Part shown: positions 1-39,837 of the stretch, piece after piece
Position numbering within the stretch: position 1 is the first letter of the stretch
Layout: each line of letters starts with the position of its first letter
Source of the DNA: Thermoplasmata archaeon
GTDB taxonomy: Archaea > Thermoplasmatota > E2 > JACPAO01 > JAHFTW01
Reading direction: 5' to 3'
Length of the DNA stretch: 64,000 nucleotides
Assembly: GCA_034667725.1 (NCBI GenBank)
Contig: JAXDQS010000003.1
Location: forward strand, 416,001 to 480,000
Notes under the pieces: model-generated
What the model saw: the letters and a program-made list of their open reading frames with translations, nothing else
Told to the model about the DNA's origin: nothing
The model's database searches: none
Made by a program: the position numbers and the translations under genes

Positions 1-992
1 AGCGCAAGGCACACCGTGGGCGTCGCTGTGTCCTCGCCGAGCAGGTGGCGCTGGAACCAGGCGAGCGCCAGCGCGTCAGGCAGGCCGCACGGGTGGCGTG
101 ACGGCGGGGCGGTGGCGTTGCCGCGCACCGGCGTGTCGAGCGAGTGCCCGCCGAGGTGGGCCACGAGGGCGACGGGGCCCGTGGCCTGGGCGTGGTTCCG
201 CAGCGCCTCGCCGAGGTCGAACAGCGAGTCGTTGGCGCCTTGGACGAACAGCGCGGGCACCGCGACACCGCCGGCTTGGTGGCTCGGGCTGCTGGCCGCG
301 AGCGCGGCGGCAAGCGAAGCCGGCACGGCGCCGTCGCGCAGCGTCTGCTCGAAGCCGGCGCGGATGTCCGGATGGATGCGGCCCTGGATGGCGGCGGACA
401 GCCAGAGCGACGCCACCCACGCCGTCTTGGGGACGCCGTTGGGCGCAAGCGCGTGCACCAAGTCGTTCCAAGTGTCCTCCGCGACGACGGCGTCGAGCCG
501 CGAGTCGAGGGCCGCCGTCAACAAGGGGAACGCACCGCCGTAGCTCTCGCCCATGGCGCCCGCCACCGGGTCGCCGGCTGCCTCCTGGCGAACCCAGTCG
601 AGGCCGGCGAGGTGGCCGAGCACCGCCTGCACGTCGCGAATCTCGAAGTCGGGGCTTGCGACCCGGGCCTGGCTGGTGGCGCGCGCCTCGCCGTGGCCGC
701 GCATGTCGATCGACACGACCGCGAGGCCCGCGTCGGTGAACGCGCGGAACGCCTCCAGCCGGGTCTCGCGCGCGCCGCCCCAGCCGTGGCTGTGCAGCAC
801 GACGGGCACGGGCGCCGCAGCACTCGCGCCTTCCGGCCGGTAGATCGTGACCGGCACCGGATGGCCGTCGAACGACGCAATGGTCAGGAACGTGGCACGC
901 TCCGGCGGCGCCGTCGAGGACCCCGGTCCCTGGCCGAGGCAGGCGCTCAGGGCGACCGCCGCGACGACCAGGACTAGGAGGGCGGGGCGCAA
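1..992 (-). CDS. Lipoprotein alpha/beta hydrolase, CocE/NonD (peptidase S15-like); 3' end runs off the window
   Basis: Not in the ORF track. Manual translation from TTG at 992 gives LRPALLVLVVAAVALSAC (lipobox), VVLHSHGWGG, IDMRGHG, nucleophile motif GESYGG and VQGANDSLF; frame stays open to position 1. Overlaps the upstream gene by 19 bp. Confidence 0.8.
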   Translation of the reverse strand, partial: MRPALLVLVVAAVALSACLGQGPGSSTAPPERATFLTIASFDGHPVPVTIYRPEGASAAAPVPVVLHSHGWGGARETRLEAFRAFTDAGLAVVSIDMRGHGEARATSQARVASPDFEIRDVQAVLGHLAGLDWVRQEAAGDPVAGAMGESYGGAFPLLTAALDSRLDAVVAEDTWNDLVHALAPNGVPKTAWVASLWLSAAIQGRIHPDIRAGFEQTLRDGAVPASLAAALAASSPSHQAGGVAVPALFVQGANDSLFDLGEALRNHAQATGPVALVAHLGGHSLDTPVRGNATAPPSRHPCGLPDALALAWFQRHLLGEDTATPTVCLA

Positions 993-2482
993 GCGGCAGG
1001 ACGAAGGCCACGGGCGCAAAAAGCCAGCAGCAGGAGCAGCAGCCCCACGCTGGCGCCCGGCGCCCGCTCGTCCGGCTGGCCGAAGTCGAACACGGGCGCG
1101 CGCTCCAGCGGCGACACCAGGTGGCGGATGGTCCGCCCCTCCCAGGTCGCCTCGGCCTCGCCCACGACGGGCACGCCAGCCACGAACGCCGGCTCCCACA
1201 GGAGGGTCGCGGTGCCGTCGGCGGCCGTCATGCCCGAGAGGCCGTCGAGCCGCACGGTCGCGTTCGCGACGGGGGCGCCGACGGGGTCGAGCACGGTGGC
1301 CTGCACCTGGTACATCGCGCGCACCGGCTTGGTGGCGGCGGTGGAGTAGCTATTGCCGTCGAGCGCGAGCAGGGTCGGGTTGGCGGCGAACACGTCGGTC
1401 TCGCCGGTGCCGTTGAACACGGTGCGCTCGACCCGCAGGCCGGCGTCCTTGACCGAGACGCCGCCGACCGAGTTGCCGGCGAGGCGGCTGTCGGCCACGC
1501 GCAGCTCGGCGTGCTCGGCGAACAGGCCGACCGTGGCCTGCGCCTCCGGCTTGGGCGAGACGTCGCAGGCGTTGACCTCGACGACGCCGGGCGTGCCAGG
1601 CACGGGCGCCGGCTGGTGCGTGAGCCCGAAGTTGCCGTAGCGCAGGCGGCAGCCATGCAGCGTGGCCGAGGAATCGACCAGGACGACGGCGTTGCGCGCC
1701 GACAGGTCCACGTCGTCCGCGACGACGGTGCTGCGGGTGGCGTGCAGCGCGACCCGGTCGGTGCGCGCCGTGACGTTGCGCAGCGTGAGTTGCGACGAGG
1801 CGACCCGGATGCCCTCGATGCCGGTGTTGAGGTCGGCGTCCTCGAGCACGAGCGTGCCGTTGAGGGCCGCGAACGCGCCGCTTGCGATGCGCACCGTGAC
1901 ATCGCGCGCGAAGGCCGCGCCGCCGTCGTGGGCGAACAGGGCGGGGCCCTTGATGTCGGCGACCGCGGTGTGGTTGAGGTAGGCGCGGCCGGTCTTTGTG
2001 GCCAGGAGGCCGCCGCCGAGGAACGACTCCGCCATGAAGCCCTCCAGGCCCCGGATCTGGACCGGGTTGCCGGGCAGGCCTTCGGCGACGAAGACGCCCT
2101 CGACGGTGACGGTGTAGCCGTAGCTGGCGTTGGCGGGCTCCATCGTGGCGGCGCGCTCGGGCGTGGAGCGCAGCTCCAGCCGGCCGCCCGCCTCGACGCG
2201 CACGTCCAAGCCTTCGCTGGCTGCGCCCAGCCACTTGTCCTGGTAGGGCGGGGAGGCGATGCGCAGCGTGCAGCCTTCAAGCACCAGGGCGCCGCCGGCC
2301 ACGACCCGGAGGTCCTGCTCGACCAGCACGGTGTCGTCGCGGCAGTGGACCTCGGTGTCGATGACCTTCCAGGCGGCTTCGCTGGACCCGTCCGCCTGCC
2401 CCTGCGCGGGCAGCGGGAGGAGGACGAGGAGGATGAGGCCGGCCAGCAGGGCGCGCCTAGGGTTCGGCGACACGGAGGTCAT
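974..2482 (-). CDS. Secreted right-handed beta-helix-like protein with C-terminal Ig-like domain and membrane anchor
   Basis: N-terminal signal peptide, repeated short beta-strand motifs (LTLRNVT, VVADDVD, LRVADSRL), DPVGAPVANATVRL motif, and a C-terminal APGASVGLLLLLLAF plus basic tail. Confidence 0.65.
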   Translation of the reverse strand: MTSVSPNPRRALLAGLILLVLLPLPAQGQADGSSEAAWKVIDTEVHCRDDTVLVEQDLRVVAGGALVLEGCTLRIASPPYQDKWLGAASEGLDVRVEAGGRLELRSTPERAATMEPANASYGYTVTVEGVFVAEGLPGNPVQIRGLEGFMAESFLGGGLLATKTGRAYLNHTAVADIKGPALFAHDGGAAFARDVTVRIASGAFAALNGTLVLEDADLNTGIEGIRVASSQLTLRNVTARTDRVALHATRSTVVADDVDLSARNAVVLVDSSATLHGCRLRYGNFGLTHQPAPVPGTPGVVEVNACDVSPKPEAQATVGLFAEHAELRVADSRLAGNSVGGVSVKDAGLRVERTVFNGTGETDVFAANPTLLALDGNSYSTAATKPVRAMYQVQATVLDPVGAPVANATVRLDGLSGMTAADGTATLLWEPAFVAGVPVVGEAEATWEGRTIRHLVSPLERAPVFDFGQPDERAPGASVGLLLLLLAFCARGLRPAACAPPS

Positions 2483-5400
2483 CCACGTTCCAGCCGGGGC
2501 CGTCCTCGAGGCTCAGGTCGCTCACGAACGAGAGCTGCACGCGCACCATTTGGCCTGCGTAGGCCGACAGGTCGAAGGTCGCGGTCTGGTAGTCGGGGCT
2601 CTGGCCCGAGAACGAGCCGAGGGTCGCGAGGGTCGCGCCGGTGGCGTCGGCGATGTTGATGTGCAGGTAGTCAAAGCCGGCCTCCGAGCCGCCCGCGACA
2701 CTCAGCGTGAACTGCGGGGCGACCGCGGTGGTGAGGTCAATCACGGGCGAGTCGAGCTTGGCGCCGCCGGAGTAAGTGTCCTCGTTGCCGACGTAGCCCA
2801 CGCCGGGGTAGGGGGCGCCGACGTACCAGTAGTGGGTGCCGCTCTGGGCGTTGGTGCCGGAGGCCGACGGCGTGGTGGCCTGGTCGACCAGCTGCCATTT
2901 GTTGAGGGAGTCGTTCGGCGTATAGCCGAGGTCGCCGCCCTCGACGTCGTCGCAGAAGTACTCGCCGCCGACGCAGGGGCCGGCGCCGCCGGGCACCGGG
3001 TTCACGGTGTCCATCACGTGCTGCACCTCGGCGAGCACGGTGGCCACGAGGGTGGTGGCGAGGTTGTTTGCGATGGCCGCGAGCGCGCCGGCGAGGCTGC
3101 CGGCCGCCGCGGCCGCGGGGCCGAGGCAGCTGACGGGCACGAACGGCAGGTCGGCGTCCATGGTGAGGCCGGTGGTGCCCTTCTCTTCGCAGGCATTGTT
3201 GCCGGCGGAGGCGCCCGAGTAGGCGTCCTTCTCGGCGCCGTCGACCAGCAGGCCGAGCGCCGCCCAGGAGGTGCTGGACTCGCCGTAGCCGCGGCTGACG
3301 GCCGGGTCGGGGACGGTGTAGCTGTCGCGGCCGGAGAGGTCCACGAGCACGCCGAGCGGGGCGTCGATGGCCGTGCCCTGCGAGCCGGCGCCGGCGCTGT
3401 AGTCGTCGCGGCCTTCGCGGTCGATGAGCACGCCGACGCCGCCCGCCGAGCCGCTGCCCTGCGAGTTGTCGCCGGCCGTGTAGGCGGCTCGGTGGGCCGG
3501 GCCGCCGCCGATGGTCTCGTCGTCGTTGTCCACGAGGACGCCGACGCCGCCTGCCGAGCCGCTGCCCTGGCTGCTGGCGCCCGCCAGGAGGCGGTCGGCC
3601 TTCACGCCGGGGCCGGCGGGGGGCGCGTCGCCGGGGCTGGCGACGGCGACCGTGCCAGGCTCGAGCGTGATGCTGGCGGCGTCCTGCAGGCCGTCGACCA
3701 GGATGCCGACGGCGCCGCGGCCGGCGCCTTGGCTGCCGGCGCCCGCGGTGTAGGCGTCGGTGCCGTCGGCGTCCACCAGGATGCCGACGCCGACGCCGAT
3801 ACCCGTGCCGGCGCCCTGCGAGCCTTCGCCCGCGGTGTAGGTGTCGTGGCCGCTGGCGTCGATGAGGACGCCGAGGAGCGGCTGCATGGGCAGAAGCACC
3901 CAGGCGGCGCCTTGGGAGCCGTCGCCGGAGACGTAGGCGTCGTCGCCGCCAGCGTCCACCAGGTAGCCGCCGCACACGGCGCGGGAGGAGCCCTGACCGG
4001 CGGCGGCCGTGTAGGTGTCGTCGCCGGAGCCGTCGAACAGCAGGCCGCCGGCGCCGTCGATGCCGGTGCAGACGCCTTGGCCGAGGTTCGAAGCCTGGTA
4101 GCGGTCGTCCCCGCTGAAGTCCAGGAGGGCGCCCAGCCCATTGCCGACTCCGAAGCCCTGCGCCGCGTAGATGTTGGCGAGATACTGGTCGTCGCCGGCG
4201 CCGTCGATGAGGAAGCCGTTGGCGAGGCCGAGGGCGGCGCCCTGCGCAAAGCCGTCGCTGGTGTTGGGCACGAGCGCTCCCGTGACGCTGTAGGTGTCGT
4301 CGCCGCTGGCGTCCACGAGGTAGTTGCCGGAGCCCTGCACCAGGCCGGTGCCGGTGTAGGTGTCGTCGCCGCCTTGGTCGAACAGGACGGCGGGCGCGGT
4401 GGGGGCGGGGAACGGCACGAAGCGGCCGCCTTGGCTGGCGGTGCCGGCGAGGTAGGTGTCGGCGCCGTGGCCGAGGTCCAGCAGGTAGCCGGCGTCGCCG
4501 GAGCCCTGCACGCGGCGGGTGCCTTGGTAGTTGTCGCTGCCGGCGCGGTCGGCCAGCACGCCGACGCCGTAGCCACCCGTGGCCGAGCCTTGCGCCGCCA
4601 TGAGGGCCGTGTAGATGTCGTCGCCGCCGTCGTCGTAGAGGACGCCCACGGCGTTGAGGCCGGCGCCCTGCGCGTAGTTGGCGGTGTCTTCGTACGTGTC
4701 CTGGCCGGCGCCGAGGTCGATGGAGATGGAGGCAGGCTCGGTGGCGCCGAGGGTGGTGGCGCCGCCGGCGCGGTTCTGGTACAGCTCGTTGCCGCCCAGG
4801 TCGACCTGGAGGACGTGGTGGACCGTGTCGGTGTCGTCGCAGGTGCCCCGCACGACCACGAGGTTCTGGGGGTCCGCGAAGATCGGCGGCTTGGGGCAGG
4901 CCGCGCTGGAGGATGCCGAGGCGGACATGGAAGGGGTCACGGCCTCGATGGTGGCCAGCAGGCTGGCGGTGGCGCGGGCCGAGGCGGTGGCGTCGGCGGC
5001 GTGGACGGCGTCGATGGCGTCGTTGACCGACGCCACCAGCGCGCCCAGGCCGGCCGCGGCCGCGGGGCTCGCGGCCTCGAAGCGGGCGGTGGCGGCCGAC
5101 AGGCGGGCCATGTCCAAGGCGCCTGGCAGGATGCCGTGGCGCAGGTAGAGGCCGACCATCGCGACGCGCAGCGCGGCGGGCGCGTGCGCCGCCGGCTCGA
5201 CGGCCGGCAGGCCGGCCGCGGCCGCGAACGCGTCCGAGGCGGACGCGGCGCCGGCGAGCGAGGCCAGGAGGGCGGCGCCGTCCGCGGCGGCCGCGCTGGG
5301 CGAGGCCAGGCGCGCGCCTTGGGCACCGAGCATCGCCTGGACGGCGGCGGCGTCGATGCCGGTCTCGCCGTCGACGCCGGCGAGGGCGAGCAGGTCGTCC

Positions 5401-5528
5401 AGCAGCAGCGTGCTGGCGGCGGGGGTCGGCGCCGGAAGGGCCGGACCCTCGGCGGTGGCGCCGCTGAAGGATGCGGTCGTGAACATGGCGGCCAGTAGAA
5501 GGGGCAGAATCCCAGGCTTGGACAACAT
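2457..5528 (-). CDS. Large secreted protein with tandem GDDxY..SQG..GxLxD repeats and a C-terminal MAM/immune-inhibitor-A-like beta-sandwich
   Basis: ATG at 5528 (MLSKPGILPLLLAAM) preceded by SD-like GGTGA. Roughly 15-18 repeats of ~25-30 aa. C-terminus has LDSPVIDLT, SEAGFDYLHI, FDLSAYAGQ and GPGWNVDDLRV. Confidence 0.75.
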   Translation of the reverse strand: MLSKPGILPLLLAAMFTTASFSGATAEGPALPAPTPAASTLLLDDLLALAGVDGETGIDAAAVQAMLGAQGARLASPSAAAADGAALLASLAGAASASDAFAAAAGLPAVEPAAHAPAALRVAMVGLYLRHGILPGALDMARLSAATARFEAASPAAAAGLGALVASVNDAIDAVHAADATASARATASLLATIEAVTPSMSASASSSAACPKPPIFADPQNLVVVRGTCDDTDTVHHVLQVDLGGNELYQNRAGGATTLGATEPASISIDLGAGQDTYEDTANYAQGAGLNAVGVLYDDGGDDIYTALMAAQGSATGGYGVGVLADRAGSDNYQGTRRVQGSGDAGYLLDLGHGADTYLAGTASQGGRFVPFPAPTAPAVLFDQGGDDTYTGTGLVQGSGNYLVDASGDDTYSVTGALVPNTSDGFAQGAALGLANGFLIDGAGDDQYLANIYAAQGFGVGNGLGALLDFSGDDRYQASNLGQGVCTGIDGAGGLLFDGSGDDTYTAAAGQGSSRAVCGGYLVDAGGDDAYVSGDGSQGAAWVLLPMQPLLGVLIDASGHDTYTAGEGSQGAGTGIGVGVGILVDADGTDAYTAGAGSQGAGRGAVGILVDGLQDAASITLEPGTVAVASPGDAPPAGPGVKADRLLAGASSQGSGSAGGVGVLVDNDDETIGGGPAHRAAYTAGDNSQGSGSAGGVGVLIDREGRDDYSAGAGSQGTAIDAPLGVLVDLSGRDSYTVPDPAVSRGYGESSTSWAALGLLVDGAEKDAYSGASAGNNACEEKGTTGLTMDADLPFVPVSCLGPAAAAAGSLAGALAAIANNLATTLVATVLAEVQHVMDTVNPVPGGAGPCVGGEYFCDDVEGGDLGYTPNDSLNKWQLVDQATTPSASGTNAQSGTHYWYVGAPYPGVGYVGNEDTYSGGAKLDSPVIDLTTAVAPQFTLSVAGGSEAGFDYLHINIADATGATLATLGSFSGQSPDYQTATFDLSAYAGQMVRVQLSFVSDLSLEDGPGWNVDDLRVAEP

Positions 5529-5729
5529 GATGAGGTCACCTTGGGGTCCGCGAAAAAACCGCGGACGCAAGCCGCTGGAGCCATGGGTGTCACTTAAGGG
5601 TCGCCGCCGAATCATGTCCCACCCGGCGTCAAGTGGGGGGGAACCGCGGCAAGCCGGATTGAAAAATGGTTGCGCTGGCCAAGCGGGCTGGCGGCCGTTG
5701 TGGGAACGTCCTCGACGCCGCGGTCGGTC

Positions 5730-5762
5730 CCCAAAAGAGGAAAGAGGGGAAAAGGAAAGTTG
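5730..5762 (-). terminator. Oligopyrimidine terminator-like tract
   Basis: On the minus strand, TTTCCTTTTCCCCTCTTTCCTCTTTT follows the stop of the 5771..6706 gene. Confidence 0.55.
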
Positions 5763-5770
5763 GCTGGGAC

Positions 5771-6706
5771 CTACATCTTCTCGTTGTTGTCCGCGGGGTT
5801 GTACAGCATCGTGATCGGGCTGATGCACTGGGGGTCGGCCGCGTCAATCAGTCCGTCCTGGTCGTTGTTGTCGATGCCGTCGCTGCACTCCGGCTCCTCG
5901 CTGGTGTCGTCGTAGCTGCTGCAGCCGGAGTCGTCGAAGTCGATGGTGGTGTCGGCGTCGGCGTTGTCGACCTTGTCGTCGCACTGGGGCGGCGTGCAGC
6001 CGACCGCGCCGACCTTCATCCAGACGTCGTAGGTGCCGGCAGAGATGCCGGCGCCGATGTTCGGGGTGAAGGGGTCCGCGCTGACCCAGTTGCCGATGAA
6101 CACCACGATCTGGCCGGCGTTCCACGGGTTGGGCGCCATGCCGGGAATGGCCGGCATCATGCAGAAGTTGGCGCGCTCGGCGTCCGTCGGGTCAAGGCCG
6201 CAATCCTTGTCGTCCTTGGACTTCTCGGGGTCCGAGCAGGCGGCGGTGGCGACCTGGGCCTGGTTGGAGTAGTCGCTGCGCAGCTGGTCGTCGTTGTCGT
6301 TGACGTTGGTGCAGATGCTGTCGAAGTCGCGGTCGTTGCAAGTGGTCATCTCGAAGCCGGTGACGAACTGGCCCGTGGTCCACTCCGCCCAGACGCTCAC
6401 CGCGACGTTGACCGGCAGGGCCGGCAGCGCGTTGCCAGGGAAGATGGCGGCGCCCGGGTTGGCCGTGCCGGCCGTGAAGCACGGGAAGGGCAGCGGGAGC
6501 GCGGGGTCGGTGCAGACGCCGGCGCCAACGCCGATGACGGGCTTGACAGTCACGCTGCCGGGGCCGAGCACGGTCAGACACTCGATCTTGTCGCCGTCCG
6601 CGTTGGTGTTGTCTTCAGCCCCACAGTTGACGTCGTAGGGCGCGCCCTGGACCGCAAGGGTGGCCGAGGCGAACATGGCCGCCAAAAGCACGTATGTCAG
6701 TTTCAT
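5771..6706 (-). CDS. Secreted Cys-rich protein with two C-terminal CxDGxDND-type putative Ca-binding repeats
   Basis: Signal peptide MKLTYVLLAAMFASATLAVQG; repeats PQCDDKVDNADADTTIDFDDSGC and PECSDGIDNNDQDGLIDAADPQC. Confidence 0.75.
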   Translation of the reverse strand: MKLTYVLLAAMFASATLAVQGAPYDVNCGAEDNTNADGDKIECLTVLGPGSVTVKPVIGVGAGVCTDPALPLPFPCFTAGTANPGAAIFPGNALPALPVNVAVSVWAEWTTGQFVTGFEMTTCNDRDFDSICTNVNDNDDQLRSDYSNQAQVATAACSDPEKSKDDKDCGLDPTDAERANFCMMPAIPGMAPNPWNAGQIVVFIGNWVSADPFTPNIGAGISAGTYDVWMKVGAVGCTPPQCDDKVDNADADTTIDFDDSGCSSYDDTSEEPECSDGIDNNDQDGLIDAADPQCISPITMLYNPADNNEKM

Positions 6707-6807
6707 TTTGTGTCAATCCTGCGGGACCTTGCCCGCGTTTCCCCGCGAAACGTGTGTCCGACATAAGCCCGTTTACCCAGCCGTTCCTCATGGGGAACGA
6801 CCTGGGT

Positions 6808-7470
6808 TCACAAGAGGACGCGTAGCCCCAGTTCGGTCGTTGACCCGTTCGTGGCCGAAGTGGCCTCGCCCGCCACCACGCTTTCCTCCGCCTCGCGCGG
6901 CAGGTCGCCGAGCGCCTCGAGCAGGCTGCTTGCGAGCACGGTGCGGCGCAGGCCGCCCTCGGACTCGACGGTCAGGAGGTCCATGTCGGCCAGCTGGCGC
7001 AGGTGCCAGCGGACGGCGCGCGGCGTGATGCCGACCTCGCGGCTGACGGCGCGCCAGCTCAGGTCCGGCTGCCGCACCAGCATCCCGAGGATGCGGCGGC
7101 GGGTGTCGCCCTGGATGCTGCTGACGGCGCGGTGGACGGTGGCGGGGCCGGCGCCGCGCGGGAAGAAGTGGACCTTGCGGCCCTCGGGGTGGGCGGCGAC
7201 CAGGCGGCCGCGCACCAGGCGCTGGAGATGGTACTTGACGTTGTCCCGGCCAAGCCCCGTGAGGCGGCCGAGCTCGGTCTCGCACAGGCCCCACTGCTGC
7301 TGGATGAGGTCGAACAGCGCCCGCCGGGTGGGGTGGGCCAGCAGGGCCGCGGCCTCGGGGTCCCGGATGGCGTCGCGCAACTCGTTGGATGGCTGGGGCG
7401 CCCGGTCGCCTTCCGTCCTAGGAGCGGGCGGATCACGGAAGCCTGCCGTCCAAGGGGAGGCGTGCGTCAC
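6808..7470 (-). CDS. Soluble tandem winged-HTH transcription regulator (COG3398/ArsR-like x2)
   Basis: LLAHPTRRALFDLIQQQWG..ELGRLTGLGRDNVKYHLQRL and TRRRILGML..EVGITPRAVRWHLRQL. Probable GTG start at 7470. Confidence 0.85.
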   Translation of the reverse strand: MTHASPWTAGFRDPPAPRTEGDRAPQPSNELRDAIRDPEAAALLAHPTRRALFDLIQQQWGLCETELGRLTGLGRDNVKYHLQRLVRGRLVAAHPEGRKVHFFPRGAGPATVHRAVSSIQGDTRRRILGMLVRQPDLSWRAVSREVGITPRAVRWHLRQLADMDLLTVESEGGLRRTVLASSLLEALGDLPREAEESVVAGEATSATNGSTTELGLRVLL

Positions 7471-7504
7471 AGCGCGCGCATTTGGATGGTGACTCAAAGG
7501 GAGA

Positions 7505-7525
7505 TTGGGCCATTTTGTTAGCCAA
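7505..7525. promoter_or_regulatory. 21-bp imperfect palindrome TTGGGCCA-N6-TAGCCAA (candidate operator)
   Basis: The same motif recurs at 10930-10950 and 10952-10972. This copy is 35-55 bp upstream of the wHTH gene start. Confidence 0.6.
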
Positions 7526-7555
7526 TCGACGCAAAGCGCGGTTTTGGGGCGCCGG

Positions 7556-10500
7556 CTATGCGGATGCCGCGGCCGGATAGATCTGCTTGACCAGCCCACG
7601 GCGCTCGCCACGGACCAAGCCGGCCTTCTCCATGCGGCGGATGTGGTAGTGCAGGCCCTTGCTGGAGACGCCCAGCGCCCGCGCCATCGAGGTGGCGTCC
7701 TGGCCGGGATGCTGCTGCACCCGCTCCAGGATCTGCTGCGCCAGCGGCGCCCGCAGCACCCGTGACTCGGCCAGCTGCGCCCGCGGGTAGCCCTTCGGGT
7801 AGTAGCAGGTGTAGCCCTGCACCTCCGAGGACTGCAGCACGCCGTGGCCCAAGAGCACGCCGAGGTGGTAGGTCACGACGCGGCGGGAACGGCCGGCGCG
7901 GCGGGCCAGTTCGCGCTGGTGGATGCCCGGGAGGGCGAAGACGAGGGCGGAGATTTGCGCGCGCACCGGGTGGTCGAGCGCGTCGCGGCCGGTGAGGCGG
8001 CTGAACTGGTACAGCAGCGCCGGCACCAAGCGCTTGCGCCAGCGGAACAGCCAGGCCAGGCCTGCGACCGCCACGGCGGCGGCCACCCAGCCCCAGGCCG
8101 AGGAGCCTCCGCCGGAGTCCGCGCTCAAGGCGGCGGCCGGGCGGGGCGCAAGGCGCGACCGGTCGCCGGCCAAGAGGCCGGCGCAGGCGTCGCCCGCGCC
8201 CGCGGCGTCGCTGTCGAGCTGGTCCGGGTTGGGGACGGTCGGGCAGTTGTCGAGGTAGAGCGCCGCGCCCTTGTCCGCGACCGTGTCGCCGTCCATGTCG
8301 GCGTCGCAGGCGTCGCCCGCCCCGTCGCGGTCGAGGTCCTCCTGGCTGGCGTTGGCGTCGAACACGCAGTTGTCGGCCAGGTCCTGGATGCCGTCGCGGT
8401 CGGTGTCGCGGCCGCCGGTGCCAGGCCGGGGCACGAAGGGCTGGTCGGCAACGTAGGGGACCGTGTCCTCGCAGGCGTCGCCCACGCCGTCCTGGTCGAG
8501 GTCGGCCTGGTCGAGGTTGGGCGTGCCAGGGCAGTTGTCGGCGGCGTCCTGGACGCCGTCGCGGTCGACGTCGGAGTCGAGGCCGCGCACGTTGACGCGC
8601 ATCGACTCGCGGTCGTAGGCGAAGCCGTCGAACGCCTCGAAGGTGAGGGTGTGGACGCCGGTGTCCCAGCCCTGCGTGACGAAGGTGTAGCTGCCGGTGG
8701 CGAAGTTGATGCCGGGCGAGGTCACGAGCGCGCCGTCGGGCTTGCCCACCACGACGCGGACGTCGAGGGTGGGGCCGTCGGAGTCCGTGGCGGCAAGCGG
8801 GATGGCGATGCTCTGGCCCGGGGTCGTGTAGATGTCCTTGAGGGTGGCGAGGTCGGGGACGCAGTTGGGGTCGCCCGGCGCCGGGTACTCGACGGTGGCC
8901 GCGGTGCTTCGGCCGTCGTCATCGTAGGCCGTCAGCGTGACCGTGACGGGGTCGGAGGTGGCGAACTGGTGGATGGCGGGGTTGCCGTCCGCGCCGTCGC
9001 CGTCGCCGAAGTCCCAAGTGAAGGTGAGCGGGGCGCCGCCGTCGGGATCGTAGGAGAGGTCGGCGAAGAAGTGGACCCGGTTGTCGACGCAGTCGGCGCC
9101 GCCGCCGCCCAGCCGGATGACGGCCACGGGGGGGACGTCGCACTCGATGACGCGCACCGGCTTGCTGACGGAGTCCCGCGCGCCGGCGTCGTCCCACACC
9201 GTGAGCTTCACCGTGTAGGTGCCGGGGAGGGCGAAGACATGGGACGCGGTTGCGGACCAAGGGTCGTAGGTGGTCGTGAGGGAGTCGCCCCACTCCCAGA
9301 GGCTCTTGTCCAAGGCGCCGACGCCCGGGGTGGAGAAGTCGTTGAACGAGCGGGCCTTGCGGGCGCACGCGACGGTCGGGTCCCAGCCGGGGGGCGTGTA
9401 GGGGCCGCGCGGGCCGGTGGGCGCCGAGCCGGTGGTGGGCGCGAAGTCGGCCACGGGCACCGGCGGGAACGAGCCCGAGGCGCTGTACCACATGCGGTTC
9501 TCGTTGCTCGACTCGACCATGATGCTCGCGAACACGTTGGAGTCGGAGACGATGCGATGCTGACCCGGCGTCACGGACAGCATCTGGCAAGCGTAGCCGC
9601 TGCTGCCGACAGGGGAACCGAGCGAGAACGGCACGCCGTCCATGTTGGCCACGGCGCCGGCGGGGCCGACGACGTAGACCGCGCGGCCGGTCCAGTCATG
9701 GTCGGGGACCCAGAAGTCAAGTTGCGGGGCCCAGCGGGTGGTGGGGCGCGGCACCAGGATGGCGGGGTCGCCGAGGACGGTGGCGGTCTGCTCGGCGGCC
9801 ACGACGGAGACGGCCACGTCCTGGGTGGCGTTGAGGTGCATGTTGGTGCCGAGGTCGAACTGATACCAAGAGCCGACGCCGGAGAGCTGGACGCCAGTGG
9901 GCGTGATGGTGAAGCCCTTGCCGGTGGCGTAGTAGCCGGAGGCGGGCGGGCTGGAGCCGCGGAACATGCTCGGCGACACTGGGACCGGGTCGATGGTGAC
10001 GTCGGTAAGGCCGGGCTTGGTGGCCACGACACGGTAGCTGTTGAAGCTCCCACCGGCGGCGCAGCCAACGTACTCGGTGCCAAGGTGGTGCGCCGGCAAA
10101 GTCGGGTCCTCGAGGTGGTTGCACTGCGAGGCGCCGGCCTTGGCGCAGAGGCTGGAGCCGAACACCGCCACCGGATGGTCGGACTCCAGGATGGAACCGG
10201 TGACGTCGCCCATCGCGTCCAGCCGGCGCGACTCGTAGGGGCCGAGCGTGAACGTGGTGGGGACGTCCTTGGCCATGGCCGGGAAGGTGGGGTCCGCGGG
10301 GGAGAAGCTGAAGCCGCTGCGGTAGACGCCATAGTCGATGTTGGCCGCCGGCGTGAGGGTCACGGTGGCGCCGTCGGCGGTGGCCACAACAGACAACGTG
10401 TTGGCGCCCTTCTCCTCGTAGTGGGCCAGGAAGTGGCTGTAGCCGAGGGCGCTCGTGGGCAGCAGGGTGCTGGCCTCGGCGACGGCGCTGCGGCCGCGGA

Positions 10501-10897
10501 TTGCGGCGAACTGGGAGACCACGATGTCGTCGCTGGTGCTGGTGAACCAGTGGACGAACAGCGGCGTGTGCAGGCGGCCGCCCGGGAACGAGTTGTCGCC
10601 GTAGGGGCTGACGTAGGTGTACAGCGCCGTGGTCATGGCGGGGACGGTCAGGGTGGCGGCCAGGCCGACCGTGGAGTTGTGGACCTCGACGGTGGCGTCC
10701 ACGGTGCCGATGTTGGAGATGGACCAGGTGGTGGACGGCGGGCCCGCCGCGGCAGTGTTGCCGGGCGAGTAGCTGAACGGCAGCGAAATCCCGATGTGCT
10801 CGGAGGCGGCGTCGGCGGAAGGGGCGCCCACCGCCACCAGCAAGGCCAGCAGGGCGGCGCCAGCTAGTGCCAAGGCTGCGCGGCCAAGACCACTCAT
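7556..10897 (-). CDS. Membrane-anchored regulator: signal peptide, IgGFc-binding-like domain, 2 PKD domains, Ig-like domain, TSP3 repeats, TM helix, cytoplasmic tandem winged-HTH
   Basis: ASTLLPTSALG, ILESDHPVAVFG, CNHLED and GDPA (IgGFc-binding-like); WEWGD, WDFGDG and GTYTVKLTV (PKD); DxDxDGxxDxxDNC repeats; TM WGWVAAAVAVAGLAWLF; LDHPVRAQI..PGIHQRELAR..YHL and a second HTH. Confidence 0.85.
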   Translation of the reverse strand: MSGLGRAALALAGAALLALLVAVGAPSADAASEHIGISLPFSYSPGNTAAAGPPSTTWSISNIGTVDATVEVHNSTVGLAATLTVPAMTTALYTYVSPYGDNSFPGGRLHTPLFVHWFTSTSDDIVVSQFAAIRGRSAVAEASTLLPTSALGYSHFLAHYEEKGANTLSVVATADGATVTLTPAANIDYGVYRSGFSFSPADPTFPAMAKDVPTTFTLGPYESRRLDAMGDVTGSILESDHPVAVFGSSLCAKAGASQCNHLEDPTLPAHHLGTEYVGCAAGGSFNSYRVVATKPGLTDVTIDPVPVSPSMFRGSSPPASGYYATGKGFTITPTGVQLSGVGSWYQFDLGTNMHLNATQDVAVSVVAAEQTATVLGDPAILVPRPTTRWAPQLDFWVPDHDWTGRAVYVVGPAGAVANMDGVPFSLGSPVGSSGYACQMLSVTPGQHRIVSDSNVFASIMVESSNENRMWYSASGSFPPVPVADFAPTTGSAPTGPRGPYTPPGWDPTVACARKARSFNDFSTPGVGALDKSLWEWGDSLTTTYDPWSATASHVFALPGTYTVKLTVWDDAGARDSVSKPVRVIECDVPPVAVIRLGGGGADCVDNRVHFFADLSYDPDGGAPLTFTWDFGDGDGADGNPAIHQFATSDPVTVTLTAYDDDGRSTAATVEYPAPGDPNCVPDLATLKDIYTTPGQSIAIPLAATDSDGPTLDVRVVVGKPDGALVTSPGINFATGSYTFVTQGWDTGVHTLTFEAFDGFAYDRESMRVNVRGLDSDVDRDGVQDAADNCPGTPNLDQADLDQDGVGDACEDTVPYVADQPFVPRPGTGGRDTDRDGIQDLADNCVFDANASQEDLDRDGAGDACDADMDGDTVADKGAALYLDNCPTVPNPDQLDSDAAGAGDACAGLLAGDRSRLAPRPAAALSADSGGGSSAWGWVAAAVAVAGLAWLFRWRKRLVPALLYQFSRLTGRDALDHPVRAQISALVFALPGIHQRELARRAGRSRRVVTYHLGVLLGHGVLQSSEVQGYTCYYPKGYPRAQLAESRVLRAPLAQQILERVQQHPGQDATSMARALGVSSKGLHYHIRRMEKAGLVRGERRGLVKQIYPAAASA

Positions 10898-10929
10898 AGG
10901 GGCACATTGGTGCATGATTCTAAACACGA

Positions 10930-10972
10930 TTGGGCCAGTCCACTAGCCAATTTGGGTCAAAACGATAGCCAA
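10930..10972. promoter_or_regulatory. Two tandem copies (22-bp period) of TTGGGYCA-N6-TAGCCAA in the divergent promoter
   Basis: TTGGGCCAgtccacTAGCCAA followed by TTGGGTCAaaacgaTAGCCAA, immediately upstream of a TATA-like TTTAGAA on the minus strand. Confidence 0.65.
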
Positions 10973-11100
10973 AGTGGGCCCAGGCTTTGTTTTCGGCAAC
11001 GCCGCGCGCGCCTGCGGGACTGCGCCTTCTCCCGGCCTTCCCCGCAATTTCAGCGGTCGGTCCACTCTGGCTTTTATTCGGTGGACCCTTTCGTTTTCCC

Positions 11101-12576
11101 ATGCGGCGACCGTCCCTGCTCCCGCTTCTTGCGCTCGTGGCGCTCGTGGCCGCCGCGCTGCCCCACGCCGCGGCCGAGGGCTACGACGGCGGCGACGGCG
11201 GGCTCCTGGGCGGCCTTGGCGATCTGGACCGCCTGCTGCCCGGCCCCGACGACCCCGGGCCTGAGGTGGCCCCGGTGGAGTTGCCTGCCGTCGAGGAGCC
11301 GCCCCTCGTCGCCGACGCGCTCGAAGCGGTCCGCCTGGTGCGCGACCTGGCGCTCAAGCTCGGCACGCCCATGCCCAAGGTCGACCTCTCGATGCTGACC
11401 GACCTGATCGCCCCGTCCGCGCCGTGCGCCCCGCCCGCCGTTTGCCCGCCCCCGCCGCCCCCGCCGCTGTCGCCGGGCCCCACGGTCTCTGTCGGGCCCG
11501 CGCTGGAGGACGACCCGGAGCCCTCCGTCGTCCCGGGGGCGGCCCGCGAGCGGCCCACGCCCGAGGAACCGGCCTGCCGCGACCCGGCCTGCGGCGCCCT
11601 CCCTCTCCTGGGAGCGCTTCTCGCGACGCCTGGCGACGGCCGCGCCGACGCTGCCCAGCCGCCGCACCGCGCCGCCCCGGTGCAGGACCAGGACAAGGAC
11701 GGCATCGGCGACGAAGCCGACAGCTGCCCCGTCGACCCCAATCCGCTCCAGGAAGACCTCGACCGCGACGGCGTGGGCGACGCCTGCGACCCCGACCTGG
11801 ACGGCGACGGCATCGCCGAGGACGGGCCGTTCGGGGACAACTGCCCCACCGTCCCGAACCCGGACCAGCTCGACAGCGACGCCGCGGGCGCGGGCGACGC
11901 CTGCGCCGACGCCGCCCCCGCCCCAAGCCTCAAGGGCCGCGCCCCCGGCCGCCTCGCCGCGGCGCCCGCGTGGGAGTTCCCCTGGTGGCTGCTCGGCGCC
12001 CTCGCCGCCGCCACGGGAGCCGCCGCCGCGTGGACGCACCGCCGCAAGGCCCCCCTGCTGTTCGCCCTGCTGTTCTCCCGCCTCGCCGGCGACGACATCC
12101 CCTCCCAGCCGGCCCGGTCGCGCATCCTCAAGGAGGTCGCCGCCGCGCCCGGCATCCACTTCAACGAGCTCGCGCGCCTGTCCGCCTGCGGCCGCAGCGC
12201 GCTGCGCCACCACTTGCGCGTGCTGCAGCGCTCCGGCCACGTCCGCCTGCGCGCCTCCGGCCGCTACGTCTGCGTGTACCCCGCCGACGTCCAGCCCCGC
12301 CACGCCGAAGGCTTCCTCAAGAGCGCGCTGGCCTGCCGCGTCCAGGCGATCGTCGTGGGCAACCCCGGCATCACCGTCGCCGAGGCCGCCCGCCAGCTCG
12401 GCGTCAAGTACGGCGCCGCCGCCTACCACATGCGGCGCCTCGGCGACGCCGGCGTCGTGCAGTTGCACGGCTGGCCGATTCGGGCGTTCCCCGCGACCAC
12501 CGCGGCAGGCACCGCGGAGGCTGGGGCGCCGCCTGCGTTCGGCGCGGGCACGGCGCGGCCGGGGCTCCAGACCTAG
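11101..12576 (+). CDS. Membrane-anchored regulator: signal peptide, Pro-rich linker, TSP3 repeats, TM helix, tandem winged-HTH
   Basis: [19 protein letters not shown] signal; [14 protein letters not shown] and [12 protein letters not shown] repeats; [21 protein letters not shown]; [16 protein letters not shown] and [22 protein letters not shown] lies ~25 nt upstream. Confidence 0.85.
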
Positions 12577-12692
12577 CGTCCCGCGCATCCTGCCGCCGCG
12601 CGCATGTTCCCATCTTGGAAGGTCGCCGCCGTCAACCTCGCCGGCCCGGGGACGCTTTCGAGCGAGGTGTTCACGCTGGGCGCGGCGATTTG

Positions 12693-12773
12693 AAAAAGGA
12701 AGGTCCAGCGGGTCCCTCCTTTTTCTTTTTCTCGGATTTGCGTGAGCAGCAGCGGCGACCTGACTTTTTTTTT
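12693..12773. terminator. Bidirectional terminator-like region between convergent genes
   Basis: Inverted repeat AAAAAGGAAGG...CCTCCTTTTT followed by T-tracts. Confidence 0.55.
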
Positions 12774-12904
12774 GGAGCATCCGGGCCAAAGTCCGGGCAA
12801 CCCAGCTTCGCCCAACCGGTTCGCAAGAATGGGTGCTTCAGCCACCTCGTCCACAACCCGGCCCGATGCAGCGTTTGAGCAGATTCCGGAACGTGGCCAC
12901 GAAC

Positions 12905-14935
12905 CTACAAAGGTCCGCAGGTCGGCACGATGCCGCCGTATCCCCCGTTGTTGCCGGGGTTGCCAGGCGGCAGGGAGCCAGAGGAGGCCGTGCCCGCCGA
13001 ACCGCCGGGCGCTCCAGGTGCGCCAGGCGTGGCGGCGCCCGGGGCACCGCCTGCACCACCAGGCGCCCCTGCTCCGGGTGCGCCTCCTGCCAGCAGGCCG
13101 GGGGCGCCGTTGCCGCCATCGCCGCCGTGGCCCGCAAGGCCGCCCCAAGCGATGGCGTCGCCGCCGTTCCCACCCGGGTAGCCGTAGAGTCCTTCGCCGC
13201 CGGGTCCGCCCGTGGCCGCGTTGCCTGCGCCGCCACTGTTTCCTGCGCCCCCGGGGCCGCCGGCGCCGCCGTTGATGCCGCAGGCACCCGTTCCGCCGTT
13301 GCCACCGGAGCCGCCGCGTCCGCCTTGGGCGCTCGCGGAGCCGCCGGCACCCCCTGGGCAGCCTGCACCGCCGCCCCCGCCAAACGCCGGAGAGGCGGGA
13401 GACCCGGGTGTACCATCGGTGCCGGGGTGGCCGGAAGCGCCGCTGGCCGGCGGAGCCCCGTCGGCGCCGTCAAAGCCGTCAAAGCCAGGGTCGCCGTCAC
13501 CATTGCCGCTGCCGCCGGCACCTCCGGCGCCGCACGCAGTCTCGGTCCCCCCGCTGCCGGACGTGTTGTCGCAGTCCGCATCCACCTGGTCCGCCAGGAG
13601 GCTAGATTCGGATGCCGAATAGAGGACAACGGCGCCGCCGTCCCCGCCATCGCCGCCGCGGGCCGAGTTGATGCCGAGCAGGTTGCGAAGGAGGGTGGCG
13701 TGCCCGCCCCTGCCGCCCGCGCCTGAGGCGTAGGTGGACGGGCTGCCGGAAAAGGAGGCTGCTCCGAAGTAGAGGTTTCCGCCTTGGCCGCCGTGGCCAC
13801 CGGTGGCGGGCGCGGCGGCTTCGGTGGCCGCGTCGCCGCCGTCGCCGCCGTCGCCTGAGCGCGTCATGCCGGAGAGCGTGATGCTGCCAGCGGGCGCCAG
13901 GAGCATCAGGAGACCACCGCCTTCGCCGTTGGTGGCGATGGCACCTGAGCTTCCCGACGCGCCCGTGGCGCTTGCCAAGGTGCCGGTGACGCCGACGTTG
14001 CCAGACTTGGAGACCAGGACGAGGTGGGACCCGGGGCGGCTGGTCGTCATGGTGCCGCCGATCAGGATGTCGCCGTCGGCGATGATGCAGGTGTCGCCGT
14101 CAAATTCCGTGGTGTAGCCAGGGGCGAGGGTGTAGCTGGGGTGGCGGTAGGTGCCTGACGGCAACACGGCATGGTGGACGGGCGTCTGGTACCAAGGCGA
14201 GGCCGAGTCGCAGGACAGCGCCCCAGACGGAATCGAAGAGGTCGGAGCGCTGACTGTGTAGGTGTTGACGGCGCCACTGGCAGGCGCTTCCAAGGCGAAC
14301 AGGCTGATGTGGCCCTCGTTGACGGCGTCAAGCCACGCCAGGTCCACCGTCACGGATTCTGCGGGGCCCGTCACGCTGCAATCGGTGCCAGCGACCTGCG
14401 AGAACATCGGAACCGGGGTTCCGTCGCTTGTGAGCTGGAACGTGACGTATTGGCTGCGGGAGTAGGCCGTGACGGAGCCCATGGGGAAGTCGGCGTTGTT
14501 GCAGAATGTAGGGGCCGTGGTGGTCGTGTAGCCGTCGTACTTGCCGTTGGAGATGCCGCTCGGCTGGCAGAAGCCGCCCGCATCGTCGTAGCCAGCGCTC
14601 GCATAGCACAAGCCGCCGCGACCGCCGGAGCCCAACTGGGCGGCGTCTCCGTTGGACTCGCAGACCGTCAAGCCGAGGAGCACATCGCCTTGCCGTAGGC
14701 CCGACACGCTGCCCCCTAGGCACAACAAGTCGACGAGGAAACCGAGGATGGCGTGGAGCGGATCTGCAGCCAGCAGGTCGCAGGCCAGCATCGTTGGGTC
14801 GTCGGCAGGCATGCGGGCGCCGATGGAGTCGGTCCATTGTGCAGCGTCGCTCCCCGTCATGTGGTGGGCAGACGCATCCGAAACCAGGGGCATCAGCAGA
14901 AGACCGGCCAGCAGGGGGACAACCGTTCGCGTCAT
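12905..14935 (-). CDS. Secreted protein with Cys-containing N-terminal domain and long Gly-rich (GGxGG/GxxG) C-terminal region
   Basis: Signal peptide MTRTVVPLLAGLLLMPLVSDASA; about 300 aa of GGAGG/GAPG/GDGG repeats. Codon usage is less GC3-biased than neighbouring genes. Confidence 0.75.
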   Translation of the reverse strand: MTRTVVPLLAGLLLMPLVSDASAHHMTGSDAAQWTDSIGARMPADDPTMLACDLLAADPLHAILGFLVDLLCLGGSVSGLRQGDVLLGLTVCESNGDAAQLGSGGRGGLCYASAGYDDAGGFCQPSGISNGKYDGYTTTTAPTFCNNADFPMGSVTAYSRSQYVTFQLTSDGTPVPMFSQVAGTDCSVTGPAESVTVDLAWLDAVNEGHISLFALEAPASGAVNTYTVSAPTSSIPSGALSCDSASPWYQTPVHHAVLPSGTYRHPSYTLAPGYTTEFDGDTCIIADGDILIGGTMTTSRPGSHLVLVSKSGNVGVTGTLASATGASGSSGAIATNGEGGGLLMLLAPAGSITLSGMTRSGDGGDGGDAATEAAAPATGGHGGQGGNLYFGAASFSGSPSTYASGAGGRGGHATLLRNLLGINSARGGDGGDGGAVVLYSASESSLLADQVDADCDNTSGSGGTETACGAGGAGGSGNGDGDPGFDGFDGADGAPPASGASGHPGTDGTPGSPASPAFGGGGGAGCPGGAGGSASAQGGRGGSGGNGGTGACGINGGAGGPGGAGNSGGAGNAATGGPGGEGLYGYPGGNGGDAIAWGGLAGHGGDGGNGAPGLLAGGAPGAGAPGGAGGAPGAATPGAPGAPGGSAGTASSGSLPPGNPGNNGGYGGIVPTCGPL

Positions 14936-15312
14936 GGAACCGCGCGCATCACTCCATGGTCTCGATTAGTCGTTGAGGCCAAAGTGGGTGCAGGGGACAC
15001 CGTCGCTAATCCCATGGTGCGGCTTTTGCCTGATCAGCATCAAGGGCGCCCCAATCGCGTTGCGCCCAACCATGGCACGCCATTGCACCATCCCGGGCAG
15101 CGGCTTCGATGCCACTCCGACCGTCAAGTTCGGCGCCGCTAGCTCAAGCGACGGCCGCATGCTCCTGCAAGCTCGTCGTGCGTCCCGCCATCCCCCGGTG
15201 CGTTCCTTTTAAGAAGCAGCCCCGAGTCGCCGCATCGTCCCTCTTGGGCGCCGGACGGGCCGTTCCATCCCGTCTTCTCCGTGGAGCCGGCGCATCCGAT
15301 GATGGAACGATT

Positions 15313-15398
15313 GCCCAGGTAGTCTAGACCGGTAAGGCGCAAGCCTGGAAAGCTTGTGGGGGGAAACTCCCGCGTGAGTTCAAATCTCACCCTGGGCG
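15313..15398 (+). tRNA. tRNA-Ser (anticodon GGA)
   Basis: Acceptor stem GCCCAGG/CCTGGGC, anticodon arm CAAGC-CTGGAAA-GCTTG, long variable arm, T arm GTGAG-TTCAAAT-CTCAC, discriminator G, no encoded CCA. Confidence 0.95.
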
Positions 15399-15547
15399 CT
15401 GAAAGAAGCCCATAGGTCAGTCTCATTTGGTCGGTCCTGCGGTCCTCGACCGCGAATCCCTGCCAAACTCCTGCCCGCCTTAAGCCGCGTTCCCAACCGG
15501 GTCCTCGGGGAACGAAGCGGCAAAAGTGCCACACTTGTGCCGAAAGC

Positions 15548-37386: not shown

Positions 37387-38877
37387 ATGGGGCCCGGGGT
37401 CGTGCTGGCGGTGGACGAAGGCACGACCGGCGTCACCGCCTTGGTGCTGGACGCCGCCGGCGGCGTCGTGGGCCGCGCCTACCGCGAGGTCGGGCAGGCG
37501 TACCCGCGGCCGGGCTGGGTCGAGCAGGACGCGGCGGCCATGCTGGAGGCGGTCGTGTGGACCGGCCGCGCCGCCCTGCGCACCGCCAAGGCCGAGCCGC
37601 GCGACGTCGTGGCCGTGGGCCTTGCCAACCAGCGCGAGACGACGGTGCTGTGGGACCGCGACACCGGCGCCCCCGCGGCCCCCGCCATCGTGTGGCAGGA
37701 CCGCCGCACGGCCCCGCGCTGCGCCGACCTGCGGCCGCAATGGGCGGCCAAGATTCGTCGCCGCACCGGCCTCGTCCTGGACCCGTACTTCTCCGCCACC
37801 AAGCTGGAATGGCTGCTGCGCGACGGGCCCGGCAACGACCGGCTGCTCCAGAAGGCGCGTGAAGGGCGGCTCGCGGCCGGCACCGTGGACGCCTGGCTGC
37901 TGCACCAGCTCACGGGCCAGCACGCCACCGACCCGACCAACGCCAGCCGCACCATGCTGTGGGACATCCACAAGGGCGCCTGGGACGATGAGCTGCTGGA
38001 GCTGTTCGGCGTGCCGGAGCGGCTGCTGCCCGAGGTGCGGCCATCCAGCGGCGACTTCGGCACCACCGAGGCGTTCGGCCACCCAATGCCCGTCCTGGGC
38101 GTCGCGGGCGACCAGCAGGCGGCGCTGTTCGGGCAGGCCTGCACCAAAGCCGGCGAGGCAAAGTCCACCTACGGCACCGGCTGCTTCCTCCTCCAGCACA
38201 CGGGCGGCGACGCCATCCGAAGCCGCCACGGCCTCCTCACCACCCGCGCCGCCTCCACCGGCCGCGCCGCCCAGTTCGCCCTCGAAGGCAGCGTGTTCTC
38301 CGCCGGCAGCGCCATCCAATGGCTGCGCGACCAGCTTGCCCTCCTGCGCGCCGCCCCCGAAGCCGACGCGCTGGCCGAGCAGGTCCCCGACGCCGGCGGC
38401 GTCATGGTCGTGCCCGCCTTCACCGGCCTGGGCGCGCCCCATTGGGACCCCGACGCCCGCGGCGCCGTCCTTGGCCTCAGCCGCGGCTCCGACCGCCGCC
38501 ACCTCGCCCGCGCCGTGCTGGAGGCCATCGCGTTCCAGGCCACCGAGGTCATGGCCGCCATGCAGAAGGACTCTCAGCTCCCGATCCCCCGCCTGCGCGT
38601 CGACGGCGGCGCCGCCCAAAGCGCCCCGATGCTCCAGTTCCAGGCCGACCTGCTGCAACGCCCCGTCGTCCGCCCCGCCAACCTGGAGACCACCGCCATG
38701 GGCGCCGCCTGCCTCGCCGGCCTGGCCGCCGGCGCGTGGAAGCTCGCCGACCTCCGGAAGCCGCGCGCCGGCGACGCCGTCGTCGCGCCCACGATGGCCG
38801 CCGCGGCCGCGAAGCGCCGCATGGCCCAGTGGCGCAAGGCGGTCGCGGCGGTGCGGGCGTACGGGGCGGGCGCATGA
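37387..38877 (+). CDS. glpK: Glycerol kinase
   Basis: DEGTT, NQRETT, WQDRRT, DPYFSATK, TNASRT, GDQQAALFGQ, KSTYGTGCF and GAPHWD motifs. Confidence 0.93.
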   Translation: MGPGVVLAVDEGTTGVTALVLDAAGGVVGRAYREVGQAYPRPGWVEQDAAAMLEAVVWTGRAALRTAKAEPRDVVAVGLANQRETTVLWDRDTGAPAAPAIVWQDRRTAPRCADLRPQWAAKIRRRTGLVLDPYFSATKLEWLLRDGPGNDRLLQKAREGRLAAGTVDAWLLHQLTGQHATDPTNASRTMLWDIHKGAWDDELLELFGVPERLLPEVRPSSGDFGTTEAFGHPMPVLGVAGDQQAALFGQACTKAGEAKSTYGTGCFLLQHTGGDAIRSRHGLLTTRAASTGRAAQFALEGSVFSAGSAIQWLRDQLALLRAAPEADALAEQVPDAGGVMVVPAFTGLGAPHWDPDARGAVLGLSRGSDRRHLARAVLEAIAFQATEVMAAMQKDSQLPIPRLRVDGGAAQSAPMLQFQADLLQRPVVRPANLETTAMGAACLAGLAAGAWKLADLRKPRAGDAVVAPTMAAAAAKRRMAQWRKAVAAVRAYGAGA

Positions 38878-39467: not shown

Positions 39468-39837
39468 CGACCATCGCCATGCCCGAAGTCATCGTGCCAT
39501 GGAAACGGCACCAGACATGGTAGGTCCCGGCGGTCGCGAAGGTGAAGGAGGTGTCGCTGCCCACCTCTACCGTCTGGTTCAGCTTGGTCACCTCGATCGG
39601 GTCGCCCACCCAGTGGATGGTGACGGTGTGGCGGCGCGCGCCCTCGTTGTCGAAGCGGACCAGCGTCCCCTTGGCGACGTCCAGGGTGGTCGGGTCGAAC
39701 ATGTTGTCGCGCAGCGCCACCTCGTCCGCGTCCTGGGCGCCGGTGGTCGGCGTCGTGGAGGTGGACTTGTTGCCGTCGTTCGCCATGCAGCCGGAAAGCA
39801 GGAGCGCCACGGCCAAGCTGGCCAGGAGGACTTTCAT
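39454..39837 (-). CDS. Cupredoxin (halocyanin/plastocyanin-like) lipoprotein
   Basis: LLSGC lipobox; type-1 Cu ligands HTV ... CRFH..GM. Confidence 0.9.
   Translation of the reverse strand: MKVLLASLAVALLLSGCMANDGNKSTSTTPTTGAQDADEVALRDNMFDPTTLDVAKGTLVRFDNEGARRHTVTIHWVGDPIEVTKLNQTVEVGSDTSFTFATAGTYHVWCRFHGTMTSGMAMVVKAT

Follow-up and report, generated by a model that had tools for sequence, protein, structure and literature searches.

Can a single archaeal protein present an adhesin-like domain to the surroundings and a transcription factor to the chromosome, and if so, what might it regulate? Archaeal sensing of the surroundings is little understood, and most of its known signalling parts are borrowed from bacteria. 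The question is raised by three neighbouring genes of an uncultured soil archaeon of the Thermoplasmata, near the left end of a 64-kb stretch of contig JAXDQS010000003.1 (assembly GCA_034667725.1). This stretch, here called the window, corresponds to positions 416001–480000 of contig C3 in a 2.32-Mb genome of 26 contigs that is ~90% complete. Two of the genes encode long, receptor-like proteins and the third a soluble one, and all three products contain a tandem winged helix-turn-helix (wHTH). We think it somewhat probable that the long proteins are membrane-tethered regulators, predicted to bind DNA through their tandem wHTH, and that a private set of promoter boxes serves as a local operator linking the large receptor-like protein to the soluble regulator. 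Profile matches place the proteins among the transmembrane transcription regulators (TTRs), in a very large family that has expanded in this archaeal lineage.

Two receptor-like proteins and a soluble relative

Long open frames are common at the 72% GC content of the window, and real genes were therefore picked by the GC content of their codon positions. The coding signature (93–95% GC at third positions, GC3, and near 55% at second positions, GC2) marks 6808..7470 (–), 7556..10897 (–) and 11101..12576 (+), in agreement with the coordinates and starts of the original prediction, which was made from the letters of the stretch alone.

The large receptor-like protein (7556..10897, minus strand; 1113 aa, GC3 94%) begins with a signal peptide, followed by an IgGFc_binding-like domain at 9527..10474 (–) (residues 152–467 in P0001 numbering; Pfam PF17517, E 2.8e-34, 119 bits against a cut-off of 25.6), two PKD stretches (1.2e-21) and three TSP_3 stretches of the Ca-binding type (1.4e-20), which form a membrane-proximal stalk at 8183..8605 (–). 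A single transmembrane (TM) helix at 8039..8095 (–), with RWRKR directly after it, then leads to the tandem wHTH at 7577..7966 (–), in which HTH_HVO_0163_N (residues 988–1048) precedes an ArsR-type HTH_24/HTH_20 (1061–1107). Pfam thus matched each part that had been read from the sequence: the IgGFc-binding-like/PKD ectodomain, its TSP3 end and the tandem wHTH. No ortholog of the IgGFc_binding-like head was detected in 12 congeneric genomes. The closest paralog of the protein, at C12:~38600–41638 (+), is 53% identical over the PKD/TSP3 part and likewise ends in a TM helix and a tandem wHTH.

The small receptor-like protein (11101..12576, plus strand; 491 aa, GC3 95%) has a signal peptide, a Pro-rich acidic region, TSP3 repeats at 11656–11907 (+) (Pfam TSP_3, E 1.1e-12), a TM helix at 11977–12033 (+) and, at 12112–12462 (+), the same wHTH pair by Pfam. 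The TSP3 repeats of the two proteins score 73.1 and 47.8 bits against PF02412 (cut-off 25) and show the DxDxDG..D..DNC pattern. Matches to the MtsC cell-cohesion protein (NF047638; 94.4 and 72.3 bits against an equivalog cut-off of 350) come from these repeats alone, and that assignment was rejected.

The third gene (6808..7470, minus strand) encodes a 220-aa protein with no hydrophobic membrane segment by the Wimley–White scale and two wHTH as its only Pfam matches. All three proteins exceed the 31-bit gathering cut-off of PF24266 (HTH_HVO_0163_N) with 46.8, 55.4 and 39.5 bits. Against the ArsR/SmtB family of NCBIfam (HTH_metalloreg, NF033788; cut-off 55 bits) the soluble protein scores 64.3, and the tethered proteins fall below with 33.9 and 33.3. 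The third gene had been described as encoding the same tandem wHTH as the receptors without their membrane parts. The latter holds, but the protein is a distant family member: at 20% identity to the large receptor's tail, and in a separate, soluble clade, it does not derive by recent copying from either tail.

In both long proteins the 19-residue segments that most favour the membrane on the Wimley–White octanol scale are an N-terminal signal peptide and one helix immediately before the wHTH (–6.8 kcal/mol in the large protein, –5.0 in the small one). By Kyte–Doolittle the helix of the 491-aa protein is just marginally hydrophobic (1.2), and that of the large protein is a helix in an AlphaFold2 (AF2) model. 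Summed over 15 tethered paralogs of the genome, lysines and arginines number 13 in the 15 residues on the outer side of the TM helix and 48 in the 15 on the inner side; the isoelectric point is 11 for the tails and 4.1–4.2 for the ectodomains. The positive-inside rule and these charges therefore place the wHTH tails in the cytoplasm rather than outside the cell, in a predicted type-I single-pass topology. The layout originally proposed for both long genes (signal peptide, TSP3-ended ectodomain, one TM helix, tandem wHTH) is borne out, and the idea of membrane-tethered one-component regulators fits the tethered architecture with its cytoplasmic tails.

The AF2 model of the last 184 residues of the large protein (pLDDT 89) contains two canonical wHTH: the TM helix runs into helix 1 of the first, and a linker helix connects this to the second. 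The distance from TM helix to wHTH is ~10–30 residues. Sequence matches of the tail in the PDB are to DNA-binding proteins (5duk, YgaV, ArsR, HlyU, SmtB), the best single-domain Foldseek match is ArsR 6j05 (root-mean-square deviation 1.6 Å, 28% identity), and the ArsR-type recognition-helix and wing pattern (HHL..L...GLV, then R.G....Y) is kept in both halves. These proteins have their wHTH fold, with its recognition-helix motif and wing, in common with soluble archaeal regulators of the ArsR/SmtB and PF24266 types. Whereas classical ArsR is a homodimer with one wHTH per chain and has metal sites, each of the present proteins joins two diverged wHTH in one chain, and two of the three also have a membrane tether. 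A complex prediction for the two receptor tails (TM helix plus wHTH of each, with alignments) gave a score of 0.00, which speaks neither for nor against their binding. The small receptor and its sister paralog in the family tree (L001), which has an identical layout, have two cysteines in common in their first wHTH, in the contexts ..(A/G)CGR.. and ..YVCVY.., reminiscent of metal or redox sites in helix alpha3 of ArsR.

Could such fusions be assembly artefacts, joined at a repeated TSP3 segment? The locus does contain an inverted repeat of 73 nt and 97% identity (repeat pair I2), with one arm at 8179..8251 (–), encoding the last TSP3 repeat in frame, and the other at 11836..11908 (+), in the same frame of the small receptor gene. 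Contigs assembled independently with k=31 break at its exact core of 52 nt, within both genes. A soil-metagenome run contains 99% of the 64-kb stretch, and Logan contigs of the probable source run cover 6700–8208, 8201–11886 and 11879–12700 with no differences, with breaks only at that core. The middle contig covers both heads and the shared promoter region and the other two each span a TSP3–TM–wHTH junction, so the junctions are independently supported. Whichever way the pieces are joined there, the product is signal peptide, ectodomain, TSP3, TM helix and wHTH, so the fusion architecture holds in both cases. Thousands of protein clusters share the layout, as do 14 or more further genes of the genome. 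An artefact is therefore extremely improbable in our view, and the fusions are taken as genuine. In a second soil study, parts of the large ectodomain recur as short exact matches at low depth.

Recombination at the repeat would, from its orientation, invert 3.6 kb and exchange the ectodomains between the wHTH tails. Among the joints listed in the contigs none changes strand at the repeat, although contigs of this kind cannot exclude a minor inverted form; the repeat could also be a trace of gene conversion between neighbours.

A private promoter box and the proposed action of the tails

What the tails might regulate is suggested by the promoters of the locus. Two abutting copies of a box, TTGGCTA-N7-G(A/G)CCCAA, with a period of 22 bp lie at 10930..10972 (–), just upstream of the TATA-like TTTAGAAT, and stop 33 nt short of where the large receptor gene starts; the soluble wHTH gene is preceded by a third copy, at 7505..7525 (–), with 32 nt between box and gene start. 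The 2.3-Mb genome has exactly three perfect copies, all at this locus and at a near-equal offset from the gene start. With up to two mismatches there are 11 matches against 9 in a control, and the box therefore appears to be a private element rather than a general promoter motif. Since it is found in the promoters of the large receptor and soluble genes only, the box supports a link between these two proteins. The original prediction had made the soluble wHTH a second tier below the receptors; the shared box argues instead for co-regulation.

A promoter-proximal half-box (CCCAATC plus a TATA-like element) has four matches in the genome against one in the control, and recurs before ftsY, the signal recognition particle receptor gene (C5:171822), and before a tethered paralog (L003, C11:51864) that is a weak sister of the large receptor. 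In the promoter of the small receptor a different palindrome, GGTCCAC-N15-GTGGACC at 11059..11087 (+), brackets a TATA-like TTTTATT. The palindrome ends 13 nt and the TATA-like element lies 22 nt before the gene start. With two copies in the genome against one in the control the palindrome is not distinguished from chance, and it is a weak candidate for an operator.

We propose that the long proteins would display an acidic, adhesin-type surface domain outside the cell on a PKD/TSP3 stalk and hold a basic tandem wHTH of the ArsR/HVO_0163 type inside. The two wHTH of one chain could act as a built-in pseudo-dimer and bind DNA at or near the membrane. At the locus, the likely targets would be the three private boxes, which immediately precede the TATA-like elements in the promoters of the large receptor and soluble genes. 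Because the boxes sit in both promoters, the state or amount of the surface protein may feed back on its own promoter and on that of the soluble regulator, which could then act elsewhere. DNA binding as such, which protein recognises the box, what the signal is and whether the tails act tethered or released are all matters of inference. The sensing of contact, ligand or Ca, the heterodimerisation and the intramembrane proteolysis put forward in the original prediction are likewise conjectural.

Several points weigh against this proposal. The three wHTH modules are only 20–36% identical, which bears on which of them would bind the box; the locus has no counterpart in the 12 congeners, so the box is not open to phylogenetic footprinting; the ectodomains contain no classical ligand-sensor domain, and their chassis is common to ordinary surface proteins; and no experiment on any member of the family was found in the literature. 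In addition, tandem winged helices serve protein or RNA binding too, and the whole-model fold matches of the tail are led by SelB, ScpB, RPC62 and ESCRT-II. The tail might accordingly be read as a protein-interaction module in the style of ScpB, ESCRT-II or the cullins, coupling surface proteins to a cytoplasmic partner, given that the best of these matches are tandem winged-helix binders of protein or RNA. But their TM-score is only about 0.3, both halves of the tail match DNA-binding ArsR/MarR-type families with the recognition-helix pattern kept, the tails are very basic, and a private palindromic box stands in two promoters; we regard such a module as quite improbable.

The ectodomains lead to another alternative. 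The genome has the PKD/TSP3 membrane-proximal stalk in 20 or more further surface-protein genes (for example C2:98216–99649, C10:162112–163323, C10:280507–281421, C1:217670–218608, C3:10794–11951 and C6:72365–73261). Those inspected, at least six ordinary surface proteins of the form head–PKD–TSP3–TM, end in a TM helix and a short basic tail. Because the chassis of the receptors is identical to theirs, the TSP3 repeats of the receptors look like a generic surface-protein stalk, not a dedicated Ca sensor. The ectodomain might then be an adhesin or an enzyme and no sensor at all: a regulator fused to its own surface product would be sequestered or positioned by membrane insertion, and synthesis would limit itself through dosage, with no external signal. 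The identical chassis of ordinary surface proteins, the private box in the receptor's own promoter, the secreted or surface proteins encoded around the locus, and a family tree in which tethered and soluble states are interspersed (about three changes required) all agree with this. Against it, soluble members beside TSP3-type surface genes number three, with about two expected (an estimate), so that enrichment of family genes beside such genes was dropped as an argument; nor does any adjacent surface-protein gene match either ectodomain at E≤1e-4, which is also a negative result for homotypic sensing. We consider self-limiting dosage unlikely, but worth keeping in mind.

The proposed feedback could operate either from the membrane or after release. 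In a release model, shedding of the ectodomain and intramembrane cleavage in the style of SREBP, Notch or RseA would free a tandem wHTH of ~17 kDa for the boxes or other targets. The type-I topology and a TM helix rich in small residues (Ala/Gly) suit such a model, the genome encodes two to three M50 site-2 proteases and one rhomboid, and with the wHTH 10–30 residues from the membrane, DNA might be easier to reach once the tail is free. Yet site-2 proteases and rhomboids occur in 14 of 14 control genomes, which makes their presence uninformative; the Ala/Gly richness may stem from a base composition of 71% GC; no motif for cleavage was seen; and bacterial regulators of the ToxR type act while tethered (PMC10269533). 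Release, too, seems to us doubtful. With a short private box and three proteins at one locus, the predicted DNA-binding specificity, the autoregulation and tethered as opposed to released action can be tested directly, and the locus offers a convenient entry point: three proteins and a genome-unique 21-bp box in two of the three promoters.

A large family of transmembrane transcription regulators

How widespread is this architecture? PF24266 matches 36 places in the genome of origin. By GC3 and hydropathy the 2.3-Mb genome encodes some 30 family members, of which 16 or more are tethered and about 14 soluble. At least 15 tethered members are among the PF24266 places, and the 16th, the C12 paralog described above (C12:~38.6–41.6 kb), was found through its PKD/TSP3 stalk; since the PF24266 scan overlooked this gene, the counts of tethered members are lower bounds. 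Tethered members alone make up ~0.7% of the genes in the genome, and the whole family ~1% of the genes in genomes of this kind.

A word-index homology search with the TM and wHTH part returned two weak relatives only. An exhaustive search of 1.84 billion representative proteins with a profile of 16 members from the genome (A1) gave 23,977 clusters at E≤1e-3, of which 2,216 also pass E≤1e-30. In nearly all of the best 150 clusters 100–930 residues precede a match that spans the sequence from the TM helix to the C-terminal end, and one of the best-matching clusters bears the name 'wHTH transcriptional regulator [Thermoplasmatota archaeon]'. Per genome, matches (E≤1e-10) number 13–81 within the same order and 0–9 in other orders of the class. 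In a phylum-wide sample a match at E≤1e-30 occurs in 62 of 101 genomes, and several other taxonomic families are also rich, with counts reaching at least ~31. In relatives, family members with long frames also stand in tandem arrays of three to four genes (G008:C1:172–183 kb, G016:C17:19–29 kb, G004:C5:372–378 kb).

By definition a TTR unites a DNA-binding domain and one or more TM regions, each of them predicted, in a single polypeptide, and here the Pfam HTH, the TM helix and the AF2 model supply both. The class is known in archaea (PMC10269533). As in the TTRs typified by ToxR, TcpP and CadC, the extracytoplasmic domain is joined through a TM helix to the DNA-binding domain in one chain, and TTRs are likewise mostly single-pass with known lineage-specific expansions (PMC10269533). 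The density nevertheless differs, being higher here: the TTR census (Demey et al., 2023; PMC10269533) gives 4 ± 2 TTRs for an archaeal genome, or 0.13% of genes, and this 2.3-Mb genome has 16 or more tethered genes. So does the design. ToxR and CadC have an N-terminal cytoplasmic wHTH of the OmpR/PhoB type and a C-terminal periplasmic sensor (N-in), whereas the proteins described here are type I (N-out/C-in) with a C-terminal tandem wHTH of the ArsR/HVO_0163 type. The ArsR/MarR-type wHTH at the C-terminus and the N-terminal signal peptide and ectodomain thus exclude a TTR of the ToxR/CadC type.

ArnR and ArnR1, which regulate the archaellum in Sulfolobus acidocaldarius, are likewise archaeal membrane-bound HTH one-component regulators. 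The HTH of ArnR lies in its N-terminal region (PMC13286277). ArnR has no large ectodomain, and no sequence relation to our proteins was detected. Notch, SREBP and ATF6 offer an analogy of principle, not of homology, in their large extracytoplasmic domain, one TM helix and DNA-directed cytoplasmic part; archaea differ in having no nucleus, so that release is not required.

A literature search for a described family member yielded the general TTR census alone. The architecture had been thought uncharacterised, and this stands for the literature searched, but the layout is very common and falls within the catalogued TTR class (PMC10269533). What is new is a variant of that class, type I in topology and with its ArsR-like tandem wHTH at the C-terminus, and at this locus the private box, the in-frame 73-nt inverted repeat and an ectodomain chassis of ordinary surface proteins. 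With thousands of variants and no studied member, the family could be a major lineage-specific coupling of the surface to transcription. A bolder view, which we would hold only as speculation, is that fast-evolving surface proteins with their own tandem wHTH on private operators, tethered or released in a Notch-like manner, are the main transmembrane signalling route of the phylum, and that inversion at the 73-nt repeat might additionally swap ectodomains between tails. If true, such head–tail swapping would rewire input to output.

The surrounding island

The locus is species-specific: positions 1–15300 of the window have no collinear counterpart in the 12 congeners, whereas from 15311 on, a tRNA-Ser (15313–15399) and an enoyl-CoA hydratase gene are 80–98% conserved in them. 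The island so delimited at the left of the window consists of secreted or surface-protein genes and the three regulators, and ends at the tRNA-Ser, with GC dropping to 66%.

Downstream of the soluble regulator, and in the same direction, lie three genes with signal peptides and no Pfam families, which are possible targets of the proposed circuit. The first, 5771–6706 (–), encodes 311 aa with a Cys/Asp-rich C-terminal end containing D-x-D-x-DG-like motifs; the second, 2457–5570 (–), encodes 1037 aa with a weak InhA-like MAM match; and the third, 974–2482 (–), encodes 502 aa with a C-terminal TM helix. On the other side of the locus, 12905–14935 (–) is an open reading frame of 676 aa with a signal peptide, a Gly/Pro-rich C-terminal third and no Pfam match. 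Its GC3 of ~80%, against 94–97% in its neighbours, suggests that it may be a foreign or fast-evolving surface gene.

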